Source: Escherichia coli
Lineage (GTDB): Bacteria > Pseudomonadota > Gammaproteobacteria > Enterobacterales > Enterobacteriaceae
Assembly (NCBI RefSeq): GCF_003018255.1
Contig: NZ_CP027440.1
DNA: 64,000 bases
Direction: 5' to 3' (one strand)
Shown: piece after piece, positions 1 through 52,730 of the stretch
Layout of the letters: the number at the start of each line of letters is the position of its first letter
Numbering within the stretch: the stretch's first letter is position 1
Program-made: the position numbers and the translations under genes
Notes under the pieces: generated by a model
Told to the model about the DNA's origin: nothing
Databases searched by the model: none
What the model saw: the letters and a program-made list of their open reading frames with translations, nothing else

Positions 1-1
1 G

Positions 2-2158
2 CAGGGCCATGAAACGCGGTATGAATACAACGCCGCCGGTGACCTGACCGCCGTCATTGCCCCGGACGGCAGCAGAAACGGGACACAGTACGATACGTGG
101 GGAAAGGCCATCCGTACCACGCAGGGTGGTCTGACGCGCAGTATGGAATACGATGCTGCCGGACGGGTCATCCGCCTGACCAGTGAAAACGGCAGCCACA
201 CCACCTTCCGTTACGATGTACTCGACCGGCTGATACAGGAAACCGGTTTTGACGGCCGCACACAGCGTTATCATCACGACCTGACCGGTAAACTTATCCG
301 CAGCGAGGATGAGGGGCTGGTCACCCACTGGCACTATGACGAAGCAGACCGCATCACGCACCGCACCGTGAAGGGTGAAACCGCAGAACAGTGGCGGTAC
401 GACGAACGCGGCTGGCTGACAGGCATCAGCCATCTCAGCGAAGGGCACCGGGTGACGGTGCATTACAGGTATGATGAGAAAGGCCGCCTGACCGGTGAGC
501 GCCAGACGGTGCATCACCCGCAGACGGAAGCACTGCTCTGGCAGCATGAGACCAGACATGCGTACAACGCGCAGGGGCTGGCGAACCGCTGTATACCGGA
601 CAGCCTGCCCGCCGTGGAATGGCTGACTTACGGCAGCGGCTGGCTGGCAGGCATGAAACTCGGCGACACACCGCTGGTGGATTTCACCCGTGACCGCCTG
701 CACCGGGAAACGCTGCGCAGCTTCGGCCGTTATGAACTCACCACCGCTTATACCTCTGCCGGGCAGTTACAGAGCCAGCACCTGAACAGCCTGCAGTATG
801 ACCGCGATTACACCTGGAACGACAACGGCGAACTCATCCGCATCAGCAGCCCGCGACAGACCCGGAGTTACAGCTACAGCGACTCCGGCAGGCTGACCGG
901 CGTCCACACCACCACCTCAAATCTGGATATCCGCATCCCGTATGCCACGGACCCGGCAGGTAACCGCCTGCCCGACCCGGAGCTGCACCCGGACAGCACC
1001 CTCAGCATGTGGCCGGATAACCGTATCGCCCGTGACGCGCACTATCTTTACCGGTATGACCGTCACGGCAGGCTGACAGAGAAAACCGACCTCATCCCGG
1101 AAGGGGTTATCCGCACGGATGATGAGCGGACTCACCGGTACCATTACGACAGCCGGCACCGGCTGGTGCACTACACGCGGACACAATATGCAGAGCCGCT
1201 GGTCGAAAGTCGCTATCTTTACGACCCGCTGGGCCGCAGGGTGGCAAAACGGGTATGGCGGCGTGAACGGGACCTGACGGGCTGGATGTCGCTGTCACGG
1301 AAACCGGAAGTGACCTGGTACGGCTGGGACGGCGACCGGCTGACCACGATACAGAACGACAGAACCCGCATCCAGACGGTTTATCAGCCGGGGAGCTTCA
1401 CGCCACTCATCAGGGTCGAAACCGCCACCGGAGAGCTGGCGAAAACGCAGCGCCGCAGCCTGGCGGATGCCCTTCAGCAGTCCGGCGGCGAAGACGGTGG
1501 CAGTGTGGTGTTCCCGCCGGTGCTGGTGCAGATGCTCGACCGGCTGGAAAGTGAAATCCTGGCTGACCGGGTGAGTGAGGAAAGCCGCCGCTGGCTGGCA
1601 TCGTGCGGCCTGACGGTGGAGCAGATACAAAACCAGATGGACCCGGTGTACACGCCGGCGCGAAAAATCCACCTGTACCACTGCGACCATCGCGGCCTGC
1701 CGCTGGCGCTTGTCAGCACGGAAGGGGCAACAGAATGGTGCGCAGAATACGATGAATGGGGCAACCTGCTGAATGAAGAGAACCCGCACCAGCTGCAGCA
1801 GCTCATCCGCCTGCCGGGTCAGCAGTATGATGAGGAGTCCGGCCTCTATTACAACCGCCACCGCTATTATGACCCGCTGCAGGGGCGGTATATCACTCAG
1901 GATCCGATTGGGCTTAAGGGGGGATGGAATTTTTATCAGTATCCGTTGAATCCGATCACTAATATAGATCCTTTAGGATTAGAAACACTAAAATGCATTA
2001 AGCCACTGCATTCAATGGGCGGAACTGGTGAAAGAAGCGGTCCAGATATATGGGGGAATCCGTTCTATCATCAATATCTTTGTGTCCCAGATGGTAAAGG
2101 GGACTATACTTGTGGTGGCCAAGACCAACGGGGAGAATCAAAAGGAGATGGTCTATAG
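2..2158 (+). CDS. rhsB: Rhs family protein, 3' part of core (YD repeats) through the DPxGL boundary plus a 57-aa C-terminal tip; 5' end lies upstream of the window
   Basis: Frame is open from position 2 with no stop until TAG at 2156-2158. Repeated YD/RYxYD motifs and the conserved core end [39 protein letters not shown] are present. Symbol assigned only from locus context (H-rpt yhhI and yhhJ-rbbA downstream). Confidence 0.85.
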
Positions 2159-2434
2159 GGGCCAGGTAAAGCAAGTAATGATACAAAAGAAGCTGCTGGC
2201 CGTTGTGACCTCGTTGAAACCGATAATAGTTGTGTGGAGAACTGTTTAAAAGGGAAGTTTAAAGAGGTAAGGCCGCGTTATTCTGTATTGCCTGATATAT
2301 TCACACCTATAAATTTAGGGCTATTTAAAAACTGCCAAGACTGGTCTAATGATTCTTTAGAAACATGTAAGATGAAGTGCTCCGGAAATAACATTGGACG
2401 TTTTATTAGATTTGTATTTACCGGAGTGATGTAA
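2159..2434 (+). other. In-frame continuation of the Rhs C-terminal region after a single amber codon; cysteine-rich 92-codon segment, possible distal half of a toxin domain
   Basis: Same reading frame as the rhs ORF; only TAG at 2156-2158 separates them, and the frame stays open to TAA at 2432-2434. AT-rich like typical Rhs-CT regions. Confidence 0.45.
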
Positions 2435-2760
2435 TGAAATGTATTATTTTTTTATTCAGAGCTATATGGCTGGCTTTATCGCTTTTAATACTATTCTTTT
2501 CCATGCATAGACTTTCACTATTAGACTCCACTCGTGATGTGAGCGAGTTAATTAGTCTCATGTCTTATGGAATGATGGTAATATGTTTTCCAACAGGCAT
2601 AGTATTCTTTATTGCTCTAATATTTATAGGGACTGTTTCAGACATTATTGGCGTAAGGATTGATAGTAAGTATATTATGGCGATAATAATATGGCTTTAT
2701 TTTCTGTCAGGAGGGTATATTCAATGGTTTGTATTAAGTAAGCGCATTATAAACAAATAA
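2434..2760 (+). CDS. Small predicted membrane protein (about 3 hydrophobic segments), candidate Rhs immunity protein
   Basis: 108-aa ORF whose ATG overlaps the preceding stop (TAATG); strongly hydrophobic stretches; position immediately after the Rhs-CT is typical for rhsI genes. Confidence 0.55.
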   Translation: MKCIIFLFRAIWLALSLLILFFSMHRLSLLDSTRDVSELISLMSYGMMVICFPTGIVFFIALIFIGTVSDIIGVRIDSKYIMAIIIWLYFLSGGYIQWFVLSKRIINK

Positions 2761-2805
2761 ATTAAGTTAATTGCTCTTGTTATTATATGTAACCTGGGCA
2801 TTGAT

Positions 2806-3275
2806 ATCCCGTATGCCACAGACCCGGCAGGCAACCGCCTGCCCGACCCGGAGCTGCACCCGGACAGCACCCTCAGCATGTGGCCGGATAACCGTATCGC
2901 CCGTGACGCGCACTATCTTTACCGGTATGACCGTCACGGCAGGCTGACAGAGAAAACCGACCTCATCCCGGAAGGGGTTATCCGCACGGATGATGAGCGG
3001 ACTCACCGGTACCATTACGACAGCCGGCACCGGCTGGTGCACTACACGCGGACACAATATGCAGAGCCGCTGGTCGAAAGCCGCTATCTTTACGACCCGC
3101 TGGGCCGCAGGGTGGCAAAACGGGTGTGGCGGCGTGAACGGGACCTGACGGGCTGGATGTCGCTGTCACGGAAACCGGAAGTGACCTGGTACGGCTGGGA
3201 CGGCGACCGGCTGACCACGATACAGAACGACAGAACCCGCATCCAGACGGTTTATCAGCCGGGGAGCTTCACGCC
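2806..3275 (+). pseudogene. Orphan rhs core fragment, near-identical duplicate of window positions about 938-1395
   Basis: Translation of 2878-3275 matches the rhs ORF almost residue-for-residue ([26 protein letters not shown]...[10 protein letters not shown]); homology breaks at 3275 where the H-rpt sequence starts. Confidence 0.85.
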
Positions 3276-4567
3276 CAGGGAAAGATCATCAGAAGTACAC
3301 TTTTTGTACTAAGTAATTCGCATTTTATGTTTAAAAATCGAGATATTCCTCATTACCTGAAGCTGTTTTTTATTGCGTATACATGATCAAATACTCCTTA
3401 CATAATTAAGGAGAACAAAATGGAACTTAAAAAATTGATGGAACATATTTCTATTATCCCCGATTACAGACAAGCCTGGAAAGTGGAACATAAATTGTCG
3501 GATATTCTACTGTTGACTATTTGTGCCGTTATTTCTGGTGCAGAAGGCTGGGAAGATATAGAGGATTTTGGGGAAACACATCTCGATTTTTTAAAACAAT
3601 ATGGTGATTTTGAAAATGGTATTCCTGTTCACGATACCATCGCCAGAGTTGTATCCTGTATCAGTCCTTCAAAATTTCACGAGTGCTTTATTAACTGGAT
3701 GCGAGATTGCCATACTTCAGATGATAAAGACGTCATCGCAATTGATGGAAAAACACTCCGGCATTCTTATGGCAAGAGTCGCCGCAGGGGAGCGATTCAT
3801 GTCATTAGTGCGTTCTCAACAATGCACAGTCTGGTCATCGGACAGATCAGGACGGATGAGAAATCCAATGAGATTACAGCTATCCCTGAACTTCTTAACA
3901 TGCTGGATATTAAAGGAAAAATAATCACAACTGATGCAATGGGTTGCCAGAAAGATATTGCAGAGAAGATACAAAAACAGGGCGGTGATTATTTATTCGC
4001 TGTAAAAGGAAATCAGGGGCGGCTAAATAAAGCCTTTGAGGAAAAATTCCCACTGAAAGAATTAAATAATCCAGAGCATGACAGTTACGCAATTAGTGAA
4101 AAGAGTCACGGCAGAGAAGAAATCCGTCTTCACATTGTTTGCGATGTCCCTGATGAACTTATTGATTTCACGTTTGAATGGAAAGGTCTGAAGAAATTAT
4201 GCGTGGCAGTCTCCTTTCGGTCAATAATAGCAGAACAAAAGAAAGAGCCAGAAATGACGGTCAGATATTATATCAGTTCTGCTGATTTAACCGCAGAGAA
4301 GTTCGCCATAGCAATCCGAAACCACTGGCACGTGGAGAATAAGCTGCACTGGCGTCTGGACGTGGTAATGAATGAAGACGACTGCAAAATAAGAAGAGGA
4401 AATGCAGCAGAATTATTTTCAGGGATACGGCACATTGCTATTAATATTTTGACGAATGATAAGGTATTCAAGGCAGGGTTAAGACGTAAGATGCGAAAAG
4501 CAGCCATGGACAGAAACTATCTCGCGTCAGTCCTTGCGGGGAGCGGGCTTTCGTAATCTTGCCCTGA
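3276..4567 (+). mobile_element. H-rpt (H-repeat, ISAs1-family) element, full-length copy
   Basis: About 1.3 kb unit containing a 378-aa transposase-like ORF; its 5' leader (3300-3420) and 3' end recur in the adjacent defective copy; boundaries approximate. Confidence 0.7.
3420..4556 (+). CDS. yhhI: H repeat-associated protein / ISAs1-family transposase
   Basis: 378-aa [35 protein letters not shown]... recognised as the H-rpt ORF; SD-like AAGGAG 8 nt upstream. Confidence 0.85.
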
Positions 4568-4613
4568 TCAGACCACCGTTGATCACCATATCCATGAGTT
4601 TATGAATAAAGGG

Positions 4614-5192
4614 CAGGGAAAGATCACGCAACGCTGCTTTTTTGTACTAAATAATTCGCACTAAATATTCAATAATTGAGATATTCCTTATTACCTAAAG
4701 CTGTTTTCCATTGCTTATACATGATCAAATACTCCTTACATAATTAAGGAGAACAAAATGGAACTTAAAAAATTGATGGAACATATTTCTATTATCCCCG
4801 ATTACAGACAAGCCTGGAAAGTGGAGCATAAATTGTCAGATATTCTACTGTTGACTATTTGTGCCGTTATTTCTGGTGCAGAAGGTTGGGAAGATATAGA
4901 GGATTTTGGGGAAACTCATCTCGATTTTTTGAAGCAATATGGTGATTTTGAAAATGGTATTCCTGTTCACGATACCATTGCCAGAGTTGTATCCTGTATC
5001 AGTCCTGAAAAATTTCACGAGTGCTTTATTAACTGGATGCGTGACTGCCATTCTTCAGATGATAAAGACGTCATTGTAATTGATGGAAAAACGCTCCGGC
5101 ACTCTTATGACAAGAGTCGCCGCAGGGGAGCGATTCATGTCATTTCTCGCGTCAGTCCTTGCGGGGAGCGGGCTTTCGTAATCTTGCCCTGA
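4614..5192 (+). mobile_element. Defective second H-rpt copy with large internal deletion
   Basis: Leader and first about 125 codons nearly identical to copy 1, then jumps directly to the last about 15 codons and 3' end of the element (junction near 5143). Confidence 0.7.
4758..5192 (+). pseudogene. Truncated yhhI-like transposase remnant (internal deletion)
   Basis: 144-aa ORF identical at the N-terminus to the 378-aa H-rpt ORF but lacking about 250 internal codons. Confidence 0.8.
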
Positions 5193-5209
5193 ATACCGGA
5201 CTGAGTATA

Positions 5210-5244
<35 letters not shown>

Positions 5245-5345
5245 TGGTCAGTTCATAAACGCCTTATCCGGCCTAAAAAAAACTAAAATTCAATAAATTG
5301 CACCAATGCGTAGACCCTATAAGCTTACGCATCGGGCAACTGTAA

Positions 5346-6473
5346 TTACGCCATTGTCCCAATTGTCTTCCTGAATCTCAACAGTGCGATGGTGAAAAAC
5401 GCGCCGCCAATTGCCATCAGTGTCAGGAACTGCGGCCAGACGATTTCGAATCCGGCACCACGGTAGAGAATGGCCTGCGCGAGGCTAACAAAGTGTGTCG
5501 TCGGCATGGTCAGCATAATGTCCTGCACCATCTGCGGCATACTTTCGCGCGGCGTGGAACCACCGGAAAGCATTTGCAGCGGCAGCAGCACCAGAATCAC
5601 CAGCAGCCCCAGTTGCGGCATTGAACGCGCTATCGTCCCCATAAAAATACCGATTGACGTGGTGGCAAACAGACTGAGCGCCACGCCCAGCATAAACAGC
5701 GGGATCGAGCCTTCTATCGGTACGCCCAGCACGCCTTTTACCATCAGCACCAGCGATAATCCCGACACCACCAGCACCACCAGCCCCATCGACCAGACCT
5801 TTGCCATCATGATCTCAAACGGCGTTATCGGCATCACCAGTAAGTGTTCCACCGTGCCGTGTTCACGCTCGCGGATCAGCGCCGATCCGGTCAATACAAT
5901 CGCCAGCATGGTAATGTTGTTGATGATCGCCATCACCCCGCCAAACCACGCGGGATCAAGGTTCGGGTTAAAGCGCATCCGTGTTTCCAGCGATACCAAC
6001 GGTTCGCTGTTATCACGGTAGCGCGCGACAAAGCTGTTCACTTCACCGTTGATAATATTCTGGATATACCCATTGCCGGTAAATGCCTGGCTCATGCGCG
6101 TGGCATCGACGTTCACCTGAATATCCGGCTGGCGTCCGGCGAGGACATCACGCTGAAAATTAGGCGGAATATTTATCGCGAAGGTATAACGTCCGGCGTC
6201 CAGCCCGGCATCCATCTCATCGGCGGTGATCATCTCCGGTGGCAAAAACCACGGGCGATAGAAGCTGTTAACGATCCGGTTCGATAACTGCGATTGATCC
6301 ATATCGGCAATGGCGATCGGCGCGAGGTTCAACGATCCTGGCGTAACGGTCGCTGACGAATACACCGACACCGTAAACGAGAAGACAATCAGCGTCAGCA
6401 TCGCTTTATCACCGAGCAGACTGCGCAACTCTTTGATACCCAGATTAAAAATATTACGTAAATGGCGCATCAT
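5346..6473 (-). CDS. yhhJ: ABC-2 type transporter permease
   Basis: Hydrophobic 375-aa product; start chosen at MMRHLRNIF, overlapping the rbbA stop; operon position after rbbA. Confidence 0.85.
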
Positions 6474-9205
6474 CCCTCCTGTTTTTTCAGCAGCAGGATG
6501 CTTAAGCCCATCACCAGCGGTATGGCTATCAGCAACGGGATAAAAAGTTGCCACAAATCAGTCAGATCCAGCGCTTTCGAGAACGTTCCGCGGGCGATAG
6601 TCAGAAAATGACTGGTCGGGTAAACCTCGCCGATCCAACGTCCTGGACCTTCCAGCGAAGCTACCGGATCGATCATCCCGGAAAACTGTGTCGCCGGGAT
6701 CAACGTGATAATTGCCGTACCAAAAATGGCGGCAATCTGGCTTTTCATAAAGGTGGAGATCAGCAGCCCCATTCCGGTGGCGATGATGATATACAGCAGC
6801 GCCGCCAGGGTGAGAGTCAGGAAACTGCCTTTATGCGGTACGCCAAATACAAATACCGACAGGGCGCAGAGCAGGAAAAAGTTCAGCATCCCCAGCGCGA
6901 TGTATGGCAGCTGTTTGCCAAGCAAAAATTCGCTACGGGTGGTGGGGGTCACGTAAAGGTTGATAATCGACCCTAGCTCTTTTTCCCGCACCACGCTAAG
7001 GGCGCTTAGCATTGACGGGATCATCATCAGCAGAAGCGGGATCACCGCCGGAACAATCGCCGGCAGGCTTTTTACGTCCGGGTTATAGCGATAGCGCGTC
7101 TCAATATTCATCAGCCCGCTTTGGCTGGCGGGTGTGGACTGTCGGCTCGCCACATCCTGTAGCCAGCTCTGGTGCATGGCCTGCACGTAGCCTTTTACCG
7201 TTTCGGCGCGGCTCGGCATCGCACCGTCGATCCAGACACCGAGTTCCACGGGCGTACCACGCGCGATATCGCGCCCGAAATTAGGAGGGATCTCAATTGC
7301 CACCGTGATATCGCCCGCACGCATCCGACGATCAAGCTCGTCATAACTGGTGAGCGGCGGCTGTTCGATAAAGTAACGGGAACCGGAGAGATTGAGCGTC
7401 CACGCCTGGCTACTGACGGTTTGATCGCGGTCAAGCACCGCAAAGCGCAGGTTTTCCACATCCATACTGATGCCGTAACCCATTATCAGCATCAGGATCA
7501 CCGTTCCCATCAGCGCCAGCGTCGAACGTACCGGATCGCGTCGCAGTTCCAGCGCTTCGCGGCGGCTGTAGCTAAACAGACGGCGCAGGCTAAATCCCTG
7601 ACGCGCCGCGTGGGTGGTGTCGTGTATCACGGGCGGCGCTTCGGCTTCGTTGCTCTGCCCTGCCGCTTCCTGCAAACAGGCGATAAATGCCTCTTCCAGA
7701 CTTGCGGCTCCGCGTTTCTCAACCAGTTCCTGCGGTGTCCCGCTGGCGAGCACTTTTCCGGCGTGCATCAGTGAGATACGGTCGCAACGTTCCGCTTCGT
7801 TCATAAAGTGGGTGGAGATGAAGATAGTCACTTTGTCCTGGCGCGAGAGATCGACCATCAACTGCCAGAACATATCCCTCGCCACCGGATCGACGCCAGA
7901 AGTAGGCTCATCGAGGATTAACATCTCCGGGCGATGAATCACCGCCACCGCCAGCGAAAGCCGCTGGCGAATGCCGAGCGGCAATGACTCCGGCAGAACA
8001 TCTTCAACGTCGTTGAGCTTAAAACGCTCGCTCATTTCAGCCACTCGCGCGGGAATTTCCGCTTCCGGGATGTGAAACAAACGGGCATGTAACTCAAGGT
8101 TTTGCCGCACGGTGAGTTCGTTATAGAGCGAAAACGCCTGCGACATATAGCCTACCCGACGGCGGGTATCGATATCTTTTGGATCAACCGGTTGCCCAAA
8201 CAGCCACGCCTCACCTTCGCTGGCGGGCAGCAGTCCGGTGAGCATTTTCATGGTGGTGGATTTACCGCAGCCGTTCGAACCGAGGAATCCAAAAATCTCC
8301 CCGCGTGGAATGCGGAAATTGACGTGATCAACGGCAACGAAGGAACCAAAACGCATGGTCAGATCGCGCGCTTCGATGGCAATCTCTGCGTTTTCAGGGT
8401 GATACGGTGGGATCACTACCGCCTGATGCGCCTGGCGTTGCGCTTGCGGTAACAGATTTATAAATGCTTCTTCCAGCGTGGCGCTTTGCGTTTGCTGCCG
8501 CAGCTCTTCGGCGCTGCCGGTTGCCAGCACTTCTCCGGCATTCATCGCTACCAGCCAGTCGAAGCGTTCGGCCTCTTCCATGTAGGCGGTGGCGACCAGC
8601 ACGCTCATATTGCTCTGCCGCTGGCGAATGCTGTCGATCAAATCCCAGAACTGGGCGCGGGAGAGCGGGTCAACCCCCGTTGTTGGCTCATCAAGAATCA
8701 ACAGTTCCGGGTCGTGGATTAACGCACAGCACAGCCCAAGTTTTTGCTTCATCCCGCCGGAGAGTTTCCCTGCCGGACGATCACGAAACGGTGCTAACCC
8801 GGTGCTGGTCAGCAGCTCATTGATTCGCACTTCCCGCTCCGCTTTGTCGTGACCGAACAGGCGAGCGAAAAAATCGACGTTTTCATACACCGACAAGGTG
8901 TGGTAGAGGTTTTTGCCCAGCCCCTGCGGCATCCAGGCGATGCGCGGGCAAACGTCGCGGCGATGCTTCGGGTCGCGCATATCGCCGCCCAGCACCATCA
9001 CGCTGCCCTGCTCAATGACGCGGGCACCGGAAATCAACGACAACAAGCTCGATTTACCGACACCATCCGGTCCAATCAGCCCGACCATGCAACGGGCCGG
9101 AATATCGAGTGTGATATTGTTCAGCGCAACGGTTTTTCCATAATGCTGGCTCACGCCCGCCAGTTGCGCGACAGGCGGGACGGGAACCAGTTCCAGATGC
9201 GTCAT
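6470..9205 (-). CDS. rbbA: Ribosome-associated ATPase, fused tandem ABC ATPase domains plus permease domain
   Basis: 911-aa ORF with two Walker A motifs ([18 protein letters not shown]) and ABC signature LSGGMKQK, C-terminal membrane domain. Confidence 0.9.
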
Positions 9206-10269
9206 TGCGGCAACCTCACCACCAGGTCGTCAGGCCACGGAAGTTCTTCATTCACCCGCACCCACGCTACGCCCGGCAATCCGGTTTTGACATATTCCAG
9301 ATGCTGCTGGAGTAATTCCGGTGGGATACGCGCTTTGACACGGAACATCAATTTCAGCCGCTCATCGCTGGTTTCGACGGTTTTTGGCGTGAACTGGGCG
9401 ACGCTGGCGACAAAACTGATGGTCGCGGGAATACGCAGATCTGGTGCAGCATCAAGAATCAAACGTGCTTCACCGCCCAGTTTCAGCGTGCCCGCCTGTT
9501 CGGTTGGCAGAAAGAAGGTCATATAGACGTCGCTGAGATCGACCATATTCAGCACCCGACCGCCTGCCGCCAGCACTTCGCCTGGCTCGGCAACCCGATA
9601 CTGCACGCGTCCGTCACGCGGGGCTTTCAGTTCGCTGTCATCGATATCTGCGGCAATGCGCCGTTCAGTGGCTTGTGCCGCTTCGACGCGAGTTTGCGCC
9701 TGAATGATATTGGTGCGTGCCGCCTCTATAGCGGCTTTAGAAGCAGAAACCTGAGCTTTTGCCGATTCCAGCGCAGCTCGGGCGCTCTCAGCGGCGGCGC
9801 GGTCGTCATCCAACTGTTGCGCAGAAATTGCCCCCCGTTGTGCCAGTGAGCGGGAACGCGTATGACGTTTTGCTACGGAGTCCAGTTCTGCCTGGCGTTG
9901 ATTAACCAGCGACTGTGCGGCACGAGTTTCGCTTTGGCGTTGCTCCAGCAAAGCCTGCGCGGCGGCAACGGCACTTTGTGCTTCTTTGATTTGCGCGATG
10001 GCTTCCAGTCGCTGTTCCTGCAACACGCGAGTATCCATCTTCGCCAGCACTTCACCTTCTCGAACAAACTGGCCTTCTTTCACCAGAATGGTGTCGATAC
10101 GCCCGGCAATTTTGCTGGCGATATCCACTTCCGTCGCTTCAATGCGCCCATTGCTGACAGCAAAGCCTTCCGGCACACCCGCCGGGCGCAACAGCCACCA
10201 CGCCACGACGGCAGCCACCGCCAGTGCCCCGACAACCCACCACGCCAGATGGCGCTTACTCTTATCCAT
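9202..10269 (-). CDS. yhiI: HlyD-family membrane fusion protein
   Basis: 355-aa ORF with N-terminal TM anchor and long coiled-coil region; stop overlaps the rbbA start (translational coupling). Confidence 0.85.
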
Positions 10270-11002
10270 AATCGATCCGCCATAATCCCTGTAAGCAATC
10301 GACGCGTGTTACAACTGCCACCGAACGATGTTCAGCGGATTCTTCCATCCGGGATAAGAAGGAAATGGCAAATACGACCAGCGCACAGAGCATTGAGCGC
10401 CAATGGGGAAGGCTTAGTGAAAACGGGTAGTAATGTTGTCATCATCAGCATTCCTGGCCGTAAATGAAACACGCATACTCATAAGTGAAATCAATTAAAT
10501 ACTAACAGTTATATTCATGTTGTCTATTTGATTGCCATCAACTTGTGATACATCGCGATGTTCTTCCGTTCGCTGGTGTTTTTTCCAAAAATATTCTGTA
10601 CAGGTTCACAGATTCTGTTGCACAGGTTTCCGTAACAGGGAAACCTGATGACTATCACATAGCGTTATTATCGCCTGATGTGCGAATAAATACCGAATAT
10701 AAAATAATTTATTCTGAAAAGATGATAGATGATAAAGGCTCGTGGGTTTAATAAAATATTCCCTAAAAGACTCATTTAAAACAACAAAATAAGATAAAGA
10801 TATTAATTCAGAGTTTATCTTAGGATAAATATTTATTTAATAGCATTAACTCACAGCTAAAAGTTGATCCCCATAACGCTAAATCCGATTATAGTGAAGT
10901 TACTTTTTTTAATTGATGGCATCTTATAGACATATTTAACTAACTGAAAAGACGAATCATATGTTTTTCGAAGTGTAGCAGAAAATATATATGGGGTTTA
11001 AA

Positions 11003-12055
11003 ATGAATATATATATCGGATGGTTGTTTAAATTAATTCCTTTACTGATGGGTATAATATGCATCGCATTAGGTGAGTTTGTATTAACCGGTTCTGGGCA
11101 AAGTGAATATTTCGTTGCAGGGCATGTTCTGATTTCTCTTTCTGCGATATGTCTGGCATTGTTCACTACCGCATTTATTATTATATCTCAGTTAACTCAC
11201 GGCATGAATAAATTCTACAACAGGTTATTTCCCGTTATTGGTTATGCCGGTTCTGCTACAACTATGATTTGGGGATGGTCACTGTTGGCAAGCAATAATG
11301 TGATGGCAGATGAATTTGTCGCCGGTCATGTTATTTTCGGCGTTGGCATGATTGCCGCTTGTGTATCAACCGTAGCGGCATCTTCCGGACATTTTCTGTT
11401 GATCCCCAAAAACGCCTCGGGCAGTAAGAGTGACGGTACGCCATTGCAGGCCTATTCTTCAACAATCGGTAATTGCTTAATTGCCGTTCCCGTTCTGCTT
11501 ACTCTCTTTGGTTTCATTTGGTCAGTCATACTGTTACGTAGTGCAGATATCACACCACATTATGTTGCAGGTCACGTACTAATGGGGTTAACGGCAATTT
11601 GCGCTTGTCTTATTGGCCTTGTCGCCACTATTGTCCATCAAACGCGGAATACGTTCTCAGTGAAAGAACATTGGCTGTGGTGCTATTGGGTTATTTTGCT
11701 TGGCTCACTTACCATTATTTTTGGTATCTACGTATTAATCAGTTCAGATGCAAGCGCCCGCCTGGCCCCCGGCATTATTCTCATTTGCCTGGGGATGATC
11801 TGCTACAGTATTTTCTCCAAAGTGTGGTTGTTAGCGCTGGTATGGCGACGCACCTGTTCGTTAGCCAACAGAATACCCATGATTCCGGTATTTACCTGTC
11901 TGTTTTGTCTGTTCCTTGCTGCGTTCCTGGCTGAAATTGCGCAAACCGATATGGCTTACTTTATTCCTTCGCGAGTTCTGGTTGGCTTAGGTGCAGTTTG
12001 TTTTACACTGTTTTCCATCGTTTCTATATTAGAAGCGGGTTCAGCGAAAAAATAA
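11003..12055 (+). CDS. yhiM: Inner membrane protein YhiM (acid resistance associated)
   Basis: Polytopic membrane protein with repeated FVAGHV motifs; start taken at MNIYIGWLF (ORF track begins 4 codons earlier). Confidence 0.8.
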   Translation: MNIYIGWLFKLIPLLMGIICIALGEFVLTGSGQSEYFVAGHVLISLSAICLALFTTAFIIISQLTHGMNKFYNRLFPVIGYAGSATTMIWGWSLLASNNVMADEFVAGHVIFGVGMIAACVSTVAASSGHFLLIPKNASGSKSDGTPLQAYSSTIGNCLIAVPVLLTLFGFIWSVILLRSADITPHYVAGHVLMGLTAICACLIGLVATIVHQTRNTFSVKEHWLWCYWVILLGSLTIIFGIYVLISSDASARLAPGIILICLGMICYSIFSKVWLLALVWRRTCSLANRIPMIPVFTCLFCLFLAAFLAEIAQTDMAYFIPSRVLVGLGAVCFTLFSIVSILEAGSAKK

Positions 12056-12067
12056 TAAAAAAGGCTT

Positions 12068-12099
12068 CAGATAAGGCGTTGGACGCCTTATCTGGTTTT
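12068..12099 (+). terminator. Intrinsic terminator hairpin between convergent yhiM and yhiN
   Basis: Perfect 11-bp stem CAGATAAGGCG/CGCCTTATCTG with 5-nt loop followed by GTTTT. Confidence 0.6.
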
Positions 12100-12141
12100 A
12101 TTCAGGTTAATCCCTCTGGTATCGAGAGCACATTTTGCTTC

Positions 12142-13335
12142 TTATTCTGCCACCAAATCCTGCGCACAAGCCCATGCACTCGACCACGCCCACTGGAAGT
12201 TATAGCCCCCCAGCCAGCCGGTGACGTCCATCACTTCGCCGATGAAGTACAGCCCAGGCACTTTGCGCGCTTCCATCGTCCGTGAAGAGAGTTCGTTGGT
12301 GTCCACGCCGCCGAGCGTCACTTCGGCAGTGCGATAGCCTTCAGTGCCGTTGGGTTGTACGCGCCAGTCGGTCAATGTGCTAATCAGTGCCTGTTGGTCA
12401 CGCACGTTGAGCTGTTTTAGCGAAACATCCGGGATTTGCCCGAGTTGTTGTAAACGTTCAACCAACCGCTTCGGTAGATGAACCGCCAGTGTGTTTTTCA
12501 GGCTCTGATTCGGATGTGCATTACGCTGCTCATTCAGGAAGGTTTCGAGGTCCACATCCGGTAGCAGATTGATACTGACAAATTCACCCGGTTGCCAGTA
12601 GCTGGAAATTTGCAACACCGCCGGTCCAGATAAGCCGCGGTGGGTGAAGAGTAAGTTCTCACGGAAAACGATGCCGTTTTCAGCGGTAATCACGGAAGGC
12701 ACCGCCACGCCCGCCAGCACCTGTAACTCTTCGAGCAACGGTTTATGCAGAGTGAATGGCACCAGGCCCGCGCGGGTCGGCAGCACGTTGAGGCCAAATT
12801 GTTCGGCAATCTTATAACCAAACGGCGACGCGCCCAGCCCTGGCATTGACAGTCCACCGGTCGCGATGACCAGCTTTTCGCAACCGGCAGTCATGCCGTT
12901 CAGTTCAAGCGTGAAGCCTGTTTCATCCTTCGCCACACTCAGCACTTCGCTACGCAATCTGAAGGTCACATTGCCCTTCTCGCACTCATCCACCAGCATG
13001 TCGACAATCTGCTGCGCGGAGTCATCGCAGAAGAGTTGCCCTAACGTTTTCTCGTGCCAGGTGATGCCGTGTTTATTGACCAGATCAATGAAATCCCACT
13101 GGGTAAAACGCGCGAGTGCAGACTTACAAAAATGCGGATTCTGGCTCAGATAAGCGCCCGGTTCGACATAAAGGTTGGTAAAGTTGCAGCGCCCACCGCC
13201 AGACATGAGGATTTTGCGCCCTGGTTTTTTACCATTATCGATCAGCAGAACCCGGCGTCCTGCCTGACCTGCCAGCGCAGAACAGAACATACCCGCCGCA
13301 CCAGCGCCTATAATAATGGCATCAAACCTTTCCAC
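12142..13335 (-). CDS. yhiN: FAD/NAD(P)-binding flavoprotein of the HI0933-like family
   Basis: N-terminal Rossmann motif IIGAGAAG; 397-aa ORF. Confidence 0.85.
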   Translation of the reverse strand: MERFDAIIIGAGAAGMFCSALAGQAGRRVLLIDNGKKPGRKILMSGGGRCNFTNLYVEPGAYLSQNPHFCKSALARFTQWDFIDLVNKHGITWHEKTLGQLFCDDSAQQIVDMLVDECEKGNVTFRLRSEVLSVAKDETGFTLELNGMTAGCEKLVIATGGLSMPGLGASPFGYKIAEQFGLNVLPTRAGLVPFTLHKPLLEELQVLAGVAVPSVITAENGIVFRENLLFTHRGLSGPAVLQISSYWQPGEFVSINLLPDVDLETFLNEQRNAHPNQSLKNTLAVHLPKRLVERLQQLGQIPDVSLKQLNVRDQQALISTLTDWRVQPNGTEGYRTAEVTLGGVDTNELSSRTMEARKVPGLYFIGEVMDVTGWLGGYNFQWAWSSAWACAQDLVAE

Positions 13336-51230: not shown

Positions 51231-52631
51231 TCAGGTATGTTTAAAGCTGTTCTGCTGGGCAATACCCTGCAGTTTCGGGTGGTCGCTGAGATATTTCAGG
51301 GAGGCTTTGTAGTCTTCCAGCAACAGTTCAGCAAAGTCCATTTCGAAGCCGCGACGACACATAATGCGCATCACCACGATGTCAGTGGCTTCACCGCCGA
51401 GAGTGAAGGCCGGAACCTGCCAGCCGCGCAGACGCAGACGTTCAGAGAGGTCGTAGAGGGTGTATCCTGGATCTTCACCATCTTTCAGTTTGAAGCAAAC
51501 CGCCGGGATGCCTTCGTCCGGGCGACCGGTACAGATGAACTCATACGGCCCCAGTTTGGCGATTTCATCCGCCAGATAAGCGGCAACCTGGTAGGAAGCG
51601 TTCTGTACTTTGGTATAGCCTTCACGACCGAGGCGCAGGAATTCATAGTACTGTGCAATCACCTGACCCGCCGGGCGGGAGAAGTTGATGGCGAAAGTAC
51701 CAATCTGACCGCCGAGGTAGTCAACGTTGAACACCAGTTCCTGCGGCAGCGCTTCTTCATCACGCCAGATAACCCAGCCGCAGCCCAGCGGAGCCAGACC
51801 GAATTTATGGCCTGAAGCACTGATCGATTTCACACGCGGCAGGCGGAAGTCCCAGACGATATCCGGGGCGACGAACGGTGCCAGGAAGCCACCGCTGGCG
51901 GCGTCGATGTGCATGTCGATGTCGATACCGGTGTCGGCCTGGAATTTATCCAGCGCATCGTGCAGCGGCTGCGGGAACTCATAGTTACCGGTGTAGGTCA
52001 CGCCGAAAGTCGGCACCACGCCGATGGTATTTTCGTCGCAGGCTTCAATCATGCGTTTCGGGTCCATAAACAACTGACCGGGGCGCATAGGGATCTCACG
52101 CAACTCCACATCCCAGTAGCGGGCGAATTTATGCCAGCAGATTTGTACCGGACCGCACACCAGGTTTGGTTTATCCGTTGGTTTGCCTGCGGCTTCCATA
52201 CGCTTGCGCCAACGCCATTTCATCGCCATCCCGCCGAGCATACAGGCCTCGGAAGAACCAATGGTGTTGGTGCCAACGGCCTGACCATTTTTCGGTGCAG
52301 GCGCATGCCACAGATCGGCAACCATGTTTACGCAACGCAGGTCGATTGCAGCGGATTGCGGATATTCTTCTTTGTCGATCCAGTTTTTATTGATCGACAA
52401 ATCCATCAATTTATGGACGTTTTCGTCGTCCCAGGTCTGGCAGAAAGTGGCCAGGTTCTGACGAGCGTTGCCATCAAGATATAATTCATCATTGATAATC
52501 TGAAATGCAACATCATCGCGCATTTCGTGCAGCGGAAATCGTTTTGACTCCGCGATAGTAGAAATGGCCTTTGCACCAAAACGTGAATCGAGTAGTTCTG
52601 AGCGGAAATCCGTTAACAGCTTCTGGTCCAT
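51231..52631 (-). CDS. gadA: Glutamate decarboxylase alpha
   Basis: Start set at [20 protein letters not shown] (466 aa); PLP-binding [10 protein letters not shown] motif. Confidence 0.9.
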
Positions 52632-52710: not shown

Positions 52711-52730
52711 TTTAAATAACAAAATCCTAA
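52711..52730 (-). promoter_or_regulatory. GAD box (GadE/GadX binding site) upstream of gadA
   Basis: Plus strand reads TTTAAATAACAAAATCCTAA, the reverse complement of the 20-bp GAD box TTAGGATTTTGTTATTTAAA, 80-100 bp upstream of the gadA ATG. Confidence 0.85.

Follow-up and report, generated by a model that had tools for sequence, protein, structure and literature searches.

The short yhiI-yhiM interval of Escherichia coli is very probably an intact divergent control region in an old alternative haplotype

In Escherichia coli K-12, the genes of the yhiI-yhiM region (b3487-b3491) are arranged in the order yhiI-yhiY-yhiJ-yhiL-yhiM, with yhiL being a pseudogene. Ribosome profiling with stalled initiation complexes showed that the small-protein gene yhiY (ORF9) is translated in K-12. 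Term-seq located K-12 RNA 3' ends at NC_000913.3 positions 3630645 and 3630667 on the minus strand, the former of which was flagged as Rho-dependent and as an upstream ORF (uORF) case, and a K-12 yhiI fusion was de-repressed in rhoR66S (Adams et al., 2021). The same study counts yhiY-yhiI among its candidates for uORF-dependent Rho attenuation, of which mdtU-mdtJI is an example. On the other side of the region, primer extension placed the K-12 yhiM start at an A 22 nt upstream of the GTG start codon, preceded by the -35 element ATGAAA and the -10 element TTCAAT (Tramonti et al., 2017). GadE ChIP-exo assigned site P8 (3632675-3632700) to yhiM, with GadE as activator and its motif present, and K-12 yhiM expression dropped 15-fold, from 95.8 to 6.4, in a gadE knockout (Seo et al., 2015). 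In published work, RcsB-D56E/GadE shifted the K-12 yhiM promoter in gels, H-NS preferred the K-12 yhiM promoter fragment, and expression rose 10.75-fold in an hns mutant.

Two further systems serve for comparison. The gadA and gadBC promoters contain the 20-bp GAD box, which is bound by GadE-RcsB and lies at roughly -63 in gadA. The mutS-rpoS variable region is a phylogroup-specific segmental polymorphism between conserved core genes.

Here we describe the corresponding locus in a 64-kb stretch of E. coli DNA, referred to as the window. The start codons of yhiI, at 10269 on the minus strand, and yhiM, at 11003 on the plus strand, are 733 bp apart; an alternative in-frame ATG for yhiM is found at 10991. 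The ORF list agrees with the gene positions given in a preliminary description of the sequence, which had also called the DNA between the two genes AT-rich. The base composition confirms this: positions 10270-10990 contain 35.8% GC compared to the mean of 49.3% for the window, and the stretch 10561-11002, with 30.5% GC, belongs to the lowest 0.5% of 442-bp windows within the 64 kb. The K-12 gene order given there, with yhiJ and yhiL at this place, is right: the K-12 distance between yhiI and yhiM is 4,238 bp and not the short spacer found here, and both genes are missing from this lineage. However, the statement that the interval holds no convincing ORF had overlooked yhiY. We consider it very probable that the 720-bp gap is intact and constitutes the normal control region that separates the yhiY-yhiI operon from yhiM, an acid-stress gene. 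In all likelihood, it represents the functional divergent control region of a short (S) haplotype of the yhiY-yhiN segment, as opposed to the long (L) haplotype of K-12. The features of the segment are listed in Table 1.

Table 1. Features of the short haplotype and its borders; positions are those of the window.
Feature	Position	Strand	Basis or detail
yhiI (HlyD-family membrane-fusion protein), left flank	9202-10269	-	355-aa ORF; annotated yhiI in genomes with the same spacer
Gap between yhiY stop and yhiI start, 62 nt	10270-10331	-	K-12 Rho-dependent RNA 3' ends map here
yhiY, 37-aa small protein, candidate regulatory uORF of yhiI	10332-10445	-	RefSeq, Pfam
Highly conserved block: first yhiY codons, leader, promoter, 34 bp upstream	10414-10560		Invariant columns
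yhiY leader and promoter	10446-10526	-	-35 TAGACA 10526-10521, 16-nt spacer, TG plus -10 TAGTAT 10504-10499
Left haplotype border, where identity to K-12-type genomes stops	10487-10500		Megablast, blastn
Poorly conserved spacer middle, partly short-haplotype-specific	10527-10800		Alignment of five taxa; no homology to yhiJ/yhiL
GadE-box-like motif TTAGGATAAATATTTATTTAA, proposed GadE(-RcsB) activator site for yhiM	10820-10840	+	Conservation and K-12 ChIP-exo
TATAGT, candidate -10 of a distal yhiM promoter	10890-10895	+	Invariant in five taxa, present in K-12
Homologue of the proximal yhiM promoter	10944-10980	+	-35 CTGAAA 10944-10949, -10 TTCGAA 10967-10972, expected start ~10980
yhiM, short-haplotype allele (DUF2776 inner-membrane protein)	11003-12055	+	Pfam PF10951
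yhiM-yhiN intergenic region, right haplotype border	12056-12141		Terminator-like hairpin CAGATAAGGCGT...ACGCCTTATCTG, then GTTTTATT

Alignment with K-12 revealed that the two arrangements do not differ by a simple insertion or deletion. Instead, the entire segment from the yhiY leader to yhiN, including yhiM, is a deeply diverged haplotype. Using blastn, we found 95.8% identity to K-12 up to position 10499, 80.4% across yhiM and 98.1% from 12147 onward. The flanking genes are 96-98% identical to K-12 (96.0% at the DNA level for yhiI), and the different haplotype occupies the stretch from about 10490 to 12150. In megablast searches, long-form genomes cease to match at spacer position 218 or 234, and two haplotypes of Escherichia albertii part at the same left-border point. 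The yhiM gene shares 80.2% DNA and 91% protein identity with its K-12 counterpart, with a dS of 1.36 and a dN/dS of 0.046. At the right border, the gap between yhiM and yhiN measures 86 bp, a short version common to E. whittamii, versus 314 bp of unrelated sequence in K-12 and in strain IAI39. The preliminary description had suggested that the AT-rich spacer may be a remnant of yhiJ and yhiL, but translated searches (tblastn, tblastx) detected no trace of either gene. The best hit of K-12 YhiJ in a tblastn search of 10270-11002 had an E value of 1.8, tblastx of the whole K-12 yhiJ-yhiL block and blastn against the spacer returned only K-12 intergenic homologies, and blastn of the spacer against the E. 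albertii long form gave no matches to long-form genes. The two regions have in common the flanking genes, yhiY, the yhiY promoter motif TAGACA-N16-TA(G/C)TAT, the GadE-box core and TATAGT upstream of yhiM, and a yhiM product of 350 aa. They differ in that K-12 contains yhiJ and yhiL and is 3.5 kb longer, has a yhiY leader extended by ~95-100 nt in the L haplotype, starts yhiM with GTG instead of ATG, and uses a different yhiM terminator.

The minus-strand half of the interval belongs to the yhiY-yhiI-rbbA-yhhJ unit, in which yhiI is the second gene and yhiY precedes it by 62 nt on the same strand. A CDS named protein YhiY is annotated at the homologous place in RefSeq genomes with the same spacer, and the translated product matches Pfam PF23514 over residues 1-37 of the 37-residue model (E = 8.6e-28). 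The peptide is kept in E. coli, E. albertii, E. whittamii, and E69 and is frameshifted in Escherichia sp. E1V33. In an alignment of five taxa (E. coli phylogroup B2, E1V33, E69, E. whittamii, and E. albertii), 93% of the 147 columns of the block 10414-10560 are invariant, whereas the value for the yhiI coding sequence overall is 85%. The yhiY leader and promoter reach 95% invariant columns, compared to 61% at the third codon positions of yhiI, and 82% of the columns are invariant in the gap between yhiY and yhiI. A promoter scan predicts the yhiY transcription start near 10492, which corresponds to a leader of roughly 47 nt. The homologous K-12 motif TAGACA-N16-TACTAT is located 6 nt upstream of the 5' end of the cloned yhiI 5'-UTR fragment (primer GAGACTGTTGATAAAACG...; Adams et al., 2021), and we take this 5' end to be the transcription start of that study. 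When the K-12 coordinates are mapped collinearly, the 3' ends 3630645 and 3630667 would correspond to positions ~10312 and ~10334 of the window. The conserved promoter and its leader would drive transcription of yhiY-yhiI-rbbA-yhhJ, and, as in K-12, Rho may terminate it prematurely just downstream of yhiY. The arrangement resembles other leaders with uORF-dependent Rho attenuation in having a short translated ORF directly before the first large gene, strong sequence conservation and, judging from the K-12 data, RNA 3' ends within or just past the ORF and a fusion that is de-repressed in a rho mutant. It deviates from them in that the leader falls ~100 nt short of its tested K-12 equivalent, and the yhiY mechanism is putative.

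On the plus strand, the AT-rich half would serve as the yhiM upstream region, as the preliminary description had proposed. This proposal gains support from a conserved motif resembling a GadE box, the K-12 equivalent of which is covered by a GadE ChIP-exo site, and from the published K-12 gel shifts with H-NS and RcsB/GadE on the yhiM promoter. The gene itself appears intact: it encodes 350 aa with no internal stops, and the protein matches PF10951 over residues 1-347 of 348 (E = 9.4e-156). The motif TTAGGATAAATATTTATTTAA is unique in the window and its core is invariant in the five taxa. Within the spacer, it occupies the sole stretch with a BLAST alignment to the K-12 yhiL-yhiM intergenic region (90% over 30 nt), and the K-12 counterpart of this stretch falls under site P8 after conversion from NC_000913.2 to NC_000913.3 with an offset of 1,977, a value obtained from how much the two versions differ in length and checked for consistency once, at hdeA. 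Compared to the published GadE site (TTAGGAttTTgTTATTTAAa; ChIP-exo motif TTARGAWWWWAAATA), the resemblance is partial: the TTAGGAT core and the TTATTTAA tail recur here but with a 1-nt offset, and no ungapped match of TTAGGATAAATATTTATTTAA to the canonical 20-mer was found within 3 mismatches. An exact canonical gad box is present at 52711-52730 on the minus strand, 80 nt upstream of a gene that we assign as gadA from its ORF size. Like the boxes of gadA and gadBC, the yhiM motif is asymmetric, starting with TTAGGAT and ending with TTATTTAA, and lies in AT-rich, presumably H-NS-repressed surroundings upstream of a target gene in the acid-resistance regulon. Unlike them, it has one extra base between its halves, its middle reads TAAATA instead of TTTTG, several bases differ from the canonical box, and its distance is ~150 nt to the proximal yhiM start and ~70 nt to TATAGT, compared to roughly -63 for gadA; binding is known for the K-12 homologue.

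The marked AT-richness of 10561-11002 is in keeping with an H-NS-repressed promoter, and by analogy with K-12 this half of the interval may be bound by H-NS. The conserved box would allow GadE, possibly with RcsB, to activate yhiM in acid or in stationary phase, an activation that we propose for this strain because the motif is conserved. Likewise, control by H-NS and Rho is suggested by the K-12 literature together with sequence conservation. The hexamer TATAGT was rejected as the main yhiM -10 element since primer extension in K-12 puts the main start 22 nt before the start codon. It is retained as a distal candidate; by our arithmetic, the K-12 start implied by the '-78.5' offset of Seo et al. 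(2015) would lie 7-8 nt downstream of it. The positions of the proximal promoter were transferred from K-12 through the alignment, and because its -10 element TTCGAA matches the consensus at 2 of 6 positions, its activity in this strain is uncertain. All regulatory evidence originates from K-12, which carries the other haplotype, and the motifs that both haplotypes retain are limited to the GadE-box core, TATAGT, and the yhiY promoter motif.

To describe the distribution of the two forms, we surveyed 5,426 complete E. coli genomes. The short spacer was present in 1,128 and the yhiJ-yhiL block in 4,284 of them, which together make up all 5,412 genomes with the locus. The short form thus occurs in about one fifth of E. 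coli, including CFT073, Nissle 1917, 536, S88, and ST131. Identity of yhiM is strictly bimodal in 5,378 genomes, being at least 99% in 1,127, 95-99% in one, and ~80% in 4,250. Every holder of the short form that can be placed by name appears to belong to phylogroup B2, an assignment taken from well-known strain names; of the other phylogroups, F was checked directly through strain IAI39, which has the long form. Between B2 and K-12, dS for yhiI is 0.16. Insertions of IS5, IS1, and IS4 are common in the yhiJ-yhiL block, and strain E423 is a true deletion derivative with IS1 at the junction and the K-12-type yhiM retained. Strain 64.1, with 98% spacer identity and a 14-bp insertion, had been considered as a short-form holder outside B2 but proved uninformative, as it encodes the common YhiM of the short haplotype without any change.

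Both forms are also found beyond E. coli. A GTDB scan with the strict peptide patterns MNIYIGW and KEHWLWC, which does not demonstrably cover E. fergusonii, E. marmotae, and E. ruysiae, yielded six loci. E. albertii NBRC 107761, E. whittamii, E1V33, and E69 have the order yhiI-yhiY-(670-733 bp)-yhiM with no yhiJ or yhiL, and their spacers are collinear with the one described here at 86% mean column identity. The yhiM genes of B2 and of the other Escherichia species share 88-92% DNA identity (dS 0.32-0.52). E. albertii L015, in turn, carries a very divergent long form with a YhiJ-like protein (57% identical to K-12 YhiJ), a YhiL-like protein (56% identical to K-12 YhiL), the same left junction and a homologous leader insert of ~95 nt. 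Since the short form occurs in several Escherichia lineages and a divergent long form with the same left junction exists in E. albertii L015, the dimorphism is old and crosses species. For YhiJ, only 215 homologues were found at E <= 1e-10 among the candidates scored from 5.8 billion proteins, the named ones all being from Escherichia or Shigella, and no donor of the long segment could be identified. YhiJ was not seen on plasmids, the three such matches being chromosomes filed as plasmids, and no match turned up in PADLOC or NCBIfam. Compared to a classical genomic island, the long haplotype has the atypical composition, but we found no integrase, tRNA or direct repeats at the K-12 or IAI39 borders, only secondary IS insertions. 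As the borders lie in homologous sequence, this fits homologous replacement and not site-specific insertion.

The preliminary description had left two possibilities, namely that the lineage never acquired the yhiJ-yhiL block or that it lost it. The part of this alternative that falls is a recent loss, in which a K-12-like ancestor would have deleted yhiJ-yhiL and left the spacer behind. Deletions of the block do occur, as E423 shows with its IS1, and IS insertions in it are frequent. Yet neither gene left a remnant, the junction contains no IS element or repeat, the same collinear spacer exists in four other Escherichia lineages, and yhiM together with both intergenic regions deviates from K-12 by ~20% or more, which a deletion cannot yield. 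We regard this scenario as most improbable; the absence of yhiJ and yhiL is not the scar of a recent loss but part of an old alternative haplotype, which extends from the yhiY leader to the yhiN stop. It is also very unlikely that the spacer hides, in addition to promoters, an unannotated element with a separate function, be it a small RNA, a novel small gene or the relic of a mobile element. A perfect 9-bp hairpin (10623-10631/10639-10647) lies inside a ~39-nt block that is missing from E69 and E. whittamii and thus varies between species, several short ORFs are present, e.g., one of 68 aa at 10545-10751 on the plus strand, and 85% of the 34-bp stretch just upstream of the yhiY promoter is invariant. 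However, 10561-10800 is the least conserved part of the spacer, with 35% invariant columns and indels, so that the 68-aa ORF is not conserved. An Rfam covariance-model scan of 10150-11150 on both strands gave no match at E <= 1, and repeats of the mobile-element type were looked for and not found. A generic sigma-70 and terminator scan returned zero terminators and 2 promoter-like sites, compared to 3.8 expected from shuffled sequences, and of the two only the minus-strand site gained outside support.

For the old haplotype, an ancient origin may have gone in either direction, with the short or the long form first. Quite possibly, although we hold this tentatively, the short form is the original one of Escherichia and was inherited vertically in B2, and the long segment reached the ancestor of the remaining E. 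coli groups by homologous replacement from a distant donor. The short form of E. albertii, E. whittamii, E1V33, and E69 agrees with this, as do yhiM dS values that resemble those of the flanking yhiI (0.21-0.39), a K-12-type yhiM about equidistant (dS ~1.4-1.5) from the E. whittamii and E1V33 short alleles, and the AT-rich, IS-filled long segment. On the other hand, the long form of E. albertii L015, with its left junction and leader insert, implies that long forms are also old in the genus, no outside donor is visible among the named DUF4049 homologues, and the divergence of the IAI39 long form from K-12 tracks that of the flanks. Phylogroup F is often placed close to B2. Drawing on four outgroup loci, we had taken the short form as ancestral and the long form as a foreign import; the long forms of L015 and phylogroup F weaken this version. 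Alternatively, the E. coli ancestor had the long form, and the B2 ancestor recombined with another Escherichia species and thereby exchanged it for the short one. The B2 spacer and yhiM are 94-100% identical (yhiM dS 0.10) to those of E. coli SCPM-O-B-8794, a GTDB species representative, whereas the yhiN of that strain shares just 91.6% identity with B2, the drop occurring near the right border at ~12150, and both phylogroup F and MOD1-EC7003, a close relative, have the long form. Still, we judge such an exchange unlikely as the origin of the B2 form: it is compatible with transfer in either direction, the putative donor is one genome whose contig begins 251 bp upstream of yhiM, and the yhiY region left of the border groups B2 with K-12 and not with other species, which fits either scenario.

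Irrespective of the direction, the old dimorphism resembles mutS-rpoS-type polymorphisms in that one site holds alternative sets of genes, the conserved flanks are sharply bordered, and the distribution follows phylogroups. It differs from them in that a shared gene, yhiM, lies inside the segment with two alleles of near-saturated synonymous divergence, and in that both forms occur also in E. albertii with the same left junction. In E. coli and E. albertii alike, the short form consists of spacer plus yhiM and the long form contains the DUF4049 pair. Between the species, YhiJ and YhiL are 57 and 56% identical, respectively, compared to ~98% for the flanking proteins. The near-saturated dS of yhiM and DUF4049 proteins far more divergent than their neighbors could point to long-term balancing or diversifying selection acting on this Escherichia-restricted, metallophosphatase-like pair, possibly a conflict or immunity system. 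We consider this reading of the yhiY-leader-to-yhiN segment speculative and rather doubtful; if it is true, the choice of haplotype also changes the rbbA operon leader and the yhiM allele.

The genes, the small protein, and the regulators were already described, and presence or absence of yhiJ and yhiL is visible in any pangenome. Our literature search on yhiJ and yhiL found no paper on the polymorphism, on the persistence of two haplotypes or on the role of the DUF4049 pair. As it stands, the finding is ordinary biology with a modest evolutionary twist and matters little in itself. The broader question is why more than a single Escherichia species keeps two old haplotypes, and which role the fast-evolving DUF4049 pair plays. 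For practical work, typing this locus cleanly tells short-form strains apart from every other E. coli genome examined. K-12 maps of yhiM and of the yhiY-yhiI-rbbA leader are not valid base for base in short-form strains, which include uropathogenic and probiotic ones: here, the yhiY leader is ~100 nt shorter, the proximal yhiM -10 element is another one, and YhiM differs at 9% of its residues. Studies that compare acid resistance or GABA export across strains should allow for two yhiM alleles with near-saturated synonymous divergence.

The interval between yhiI and yhiM was first described as a gap of about 720 bp of AT-rich DNA without a convincing ORF, in which the yhiJ and yhiL genes of K-12 are missing. 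Its coordinates and base composition are as described: GC content is 35.8% at 10270-10990 (43.6% in the left 291 bp, 30.5% at 10561-11002, window mean 49.3%). Of all 442-bp windows within the 64 kb, just 0.5% match the AT-richness of 10561-11002. The K-12 gene order had also been given correctly, since NC_000913.3 carries yhiI, yhiY, yhiJ, yhiL (a pseudogene) and yhiM, and yhiI and yhiM lie 4,238 bp apart. However, the interval does contain a gene. YhiY matches Pfam PF23514 (E = 8.6e-28), is annotated by RefSeq in genomes whose spacer is identical, and was detected in K-12 via ribosome profiling. Hereafter, the short form is the window's state, yhiI-yhiY-spacer-yhiM, and the long form has yhiJ and yhiL between yhiY and yhiM, as in K-12. 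Upstream of yhhJ, window positions 1-5345 are not collinear with the short-form strain 64.1, which has nikA-E, nikR and hicAB there; megablast identity begins at 5346.

Genes and candidate control elements of the yhiI-yhiN region (window coordinates)
Feature	Position	Strand	Remarks
yhiI	9202-10269	minus	355 aa
yhiY	10332-10445	minus	37-aa protein
yhiY promoter, TAGACA-N16-(TG)TAGTAT	10526-10499	minus	predicted by promoter scan
GadE-box-like motif, TTAGGATAAATATTTATTTAA	10820-10840	plus	unique in window; core invariant in five taxa
TATAGT	10890-10895	plus	conserved
CTGAAA, counterpart of K-12 proximal yhiM -35	10944-10949	plus	by alignment
TTCGAA, counterpart of K-12 proximal yhiM -10	10967-10972	plus	by alignment
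yhiM	11003-12055	plus	350 aa; further in-frame ATG at 10991
yhiM-yhiN gap	12056-12141		86 bp; terminator-like hairpin CAGATAAGGCGT...ACGCCTTATCTG then GTTTTATT
yhiN	12142-13335	minus	next after yhiM

On the minus strand, the predicted yhiY promoter has a K-12 homologue, TAGACA-N16-TACTAT, 6 nt upstream of where the yhiI 5'-UTR fragment cloned by Adams et al. (2021) begins; we take this 5' end to be their transcription start. The predicted leader would be about 47 nt long in the window and about 152 nt in K-12. The same authors list yhiY-yhiI among the uORF candidates of K-12, map Rho-dependent 3' ends at and just past the yhiY stop codon, and report a yhiI fusion that is de-repressed more than 2-fold in rhoR66S (Adams et al., 2021). 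Across five Escherichia taxa, invariant columns make up 95% of leader plus promoter (10446-10526) and 93% of 10414-10560, compared with 85% of the coding sequence of yhiI and 61% of the third codon positions in that gene. The 34 bp that precede the yhiY -35 element (10527-10560) are 85% invariant in these taxa and include two small palindromes, TTGATTGCCATCAA and ATCGCGAT. Conservation is low in the middle of the spacer (10561-10800; 35% of columns invariant), where a perfect 9-bp hairpin lies in a stretch of about 39 nt absent from two species. Rfam models gave no match in the spacer.

On the yhiM side, BLAST aligns a single stretch of the spacer to the K-12 yhiL-yhiM intergenic region, and the GadE-box-like motif lies within it. 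The K-12 counterpart of the motif falls at about 3632683-3632703 in converted NC_000913.2 coordinates (offset 1,977, checked for consistency at hdeA). For K-12 yhiM, a GadE ChIP-exo site was reported at 3632675-3632700, with GadE as activator and the motif present, and expression fell from 95.8 to 6.4 in the gadE knockout (Seo et al., 2015). The yhiM promoter fragment is bound by RcsB-D56E/GadE and by H-NS (Krin et al., 2010). The canonical gad box has both ends in common with the yhiM motif, whereas the latter has one extra base between them. An exact 20-bp copy of the canonical box, TTAGGATTTTGTTATTTAAA, occurs once in the window (52711-52730, minus strand), 80 nt upstream of an ORF (51231..52631) taken to be gadA by size and position only; the window thus also spans the acid fitness island. 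Primer extension placed the proximal yhiM promoter of K-12 at -35 ATGAAA and -10 TTCAAT, with the start 22 nt upstream of the GTG; judged by its sequence, the aligned -10 element of the short haplotype appears weak. The TATAGT hexamer may fit a start farther upstream, as the '-78.5' entry of Seo et al. (2015) implies. Conservation and the K-12 experiments together support the proposal in the preliminary description that the spacer would serve as a regulatory region for yhiM. It is an ordinary divergent regulatory region, and its components (yhiY, the yhiI-rbbA-yhhJ unit, yhiM, GadE, RcsB, H-NS, Rho-dependent leaders) have all been described before.

Of 5,426 complete E. coli genomes surveyed, 1,128 have the haplotype-specific part of the spacer (10500-11002), nearly all of them at an identity of at least 99%, and 4,284 have the K-12 yhiJ-yhiL block; the two counts add up to the 5,412 genomes having the locus, which thus split cleanly. 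Carriers of the spacer include CFT073, Nissle 1917, UPEC 536, S88, ST131 isolates, SE15 and APEC O1, which, going by their strain names, would be phylogroup B2. The long form is found in IAI39, a phylogroup F reference strain. Between K-12 and IAI39, yhiJ (96.2%) and yhiM (97.3%) are about as similar as the flanks (96.2-98.7%), which indicates that the long form has been transmitted within E. coli from a deep split onwards.

The two forms also differ in yhiM itself. Identity between the window and K-12 is 95.8% up to 10499, then collapses except for two short islands, is 80.4% over yhiM and recovers to 98.1% from 12147. Identity to the window's yhiM is bimodal without intermediates (at least 99% in 1,127 genomes, 95-99% in one, about 80% in the other 4,250). 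The YhiM proteins of the two forms share 91% identity, and the genes show a near-saturated dS of 1.36 with a dN/dS of 0.046, compared with a dS of 0.16 for the flanking yhiI in the same two strains; it follows that both alleles are old and functional. A literature search found no published account of two yhiM alleles with near-saturated synonymous divergence. The yhiM-yhiN gap with its hairpin is common to the window and E. whittamii, and K-12 and IAI39 instead have an unrelated sequence of 314 bp there, with another hairpin and a yhiN that is 3 codons longer.

The preliminary description proposed that this lineage either lost the yhiJ/yhiL block or never acquired it, and that the spacer may be a remnant. 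Searches of the spacer with K-12 YhiJ by tblastn (best E-value 1.8) and with the whole yhiJ-yhiL block by tblastx found nothing beyond intergenic homologies, and the remnant interpretation is not borne out. Recent loss is excluded as well, because the spacer lacks any trace of the block and the difference from K-12 extends past any insertion or deletion into the old, divergent yhiM. A long form that has truly undergone deletion looks unlike the window: E423 has lost yhiJ-yhiL, with an IS1 at the junction, but kept a K-12-type yhiM. Escherichia sp. MOD1-EC7003, with a K-12-type yhiM (92% DNA identity) and a yhiJ fragment adjoining a PTS sugar-utilisation cluster (L009, its extracted locus, 1-7702), also looks like a deletion derivative; yhhJ-rbbA-yhiI-yhiY are missing there. 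A similar GntR/PTS (IIA, IIB, IIC)/FGGY kinase/class II aldolase cluster lies beyond yhhJ and hicAB in IAI39 (L013, 179-6466).

The long form is unlike a classical island, since it lacks an integrase, tRNA and direct repeats, and its ends fall within homologous sequence. It is a hotspot for insertion sequences: Res13-Lact-PER12-33-A has IS5 inside yhiJ and IS1 beside yhiM, and IAI39 has IS4 between yhiJ and yhiL. Metallophosphatase-like motifs, GDxxGDR and GNHE, occur in YhiJ (K-12 locus L003, 5969-7591) and other DUF4049 proteins; for YhiJ, the Pfam Metallophos match (E = 0.0065) is below the family threshold, and PADLOC and NCBIfam gave no match. Among the candidates scored, only 215 DUF4049 homologues reached E <= 1e-10, all named ones from Escherichia or Shigella. 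The IAI39 yhiL (L013, 15146-16741) is intact, encodes 531 aa and shares only 89% DNA identity with the K-12 pseudogene. The pair diverges far faster than its neighbours, and our literature search found no report of this divergence or of the near-restriction of named homologues to Escherichia.

A YhiM scan that covered one genome for each GTDB species returned six loci, four of which (E. albertii NBRC 107761, E. whittamii, Escherichia sp. E1V33 and E69, labelled E. coli) have yhiI-yhiY-(670-733 bp)-yhiM without yhiJ/yhiL. Their spacers are collinear with the window's (mean column identity 86%), and their yhiM DNA is 88-92% identical to the window's and about 80% to that of K-12. Relative to the window, yhiM dS in other short-form loci (0.32-0.52) is comparable to that of yhiI (0.21-0.39). 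In E1V33, yhiY is frameshifted (L007, 7262-7373). The right flank differs in E1V33 (L007, 8964-16960) and E69 (L008, 9054 onward), with no yhiN or pitA within 8 kb after yhiM and no Pfam match for the ORFs there. SCPM-O-B-8794, labelled E. coli and representing a separate GTDB species (L006, 1-2600), is 94-100% identical to the window over spacer and yhiM (yhiM dS 0.10) but only 91.6% in yhiN; this change near the right haplotype border points to recent interspecies exchange, in either direction.

Taken alone, the four short-form loci would favour the short form as ancestral. This view is weakened by the flank-like divergence of the long form between K-12 and IAI39 and by E. albertii GCA_051322105.1 (L015, 5448-9623), a third haplotype with yhiN, a yhiM 3'-end remnant of about 120 bp, YhiL-like and YhiJ-like genes (proteins 56% and 57% identical to K-12), yhiY and yhiI. 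Its flanks are 97% identical to those of short-form E. albertii NBRC 107761. The sequences of these two genomes part at the left border where those of B2 and K-12 do, and the K-12 leader insert of about 95 nt is homologous to an insert in this E. albertii long form. A literature search found no report of both forms, with the same junction, in E. coli and E. albertii. These data are compatible both with a lineage that never acquired the block and with ancient loss or re-acquisition; what is robust is that the yhiY-yhiN segment represents an old cross-species dimorphism with fixed borders.
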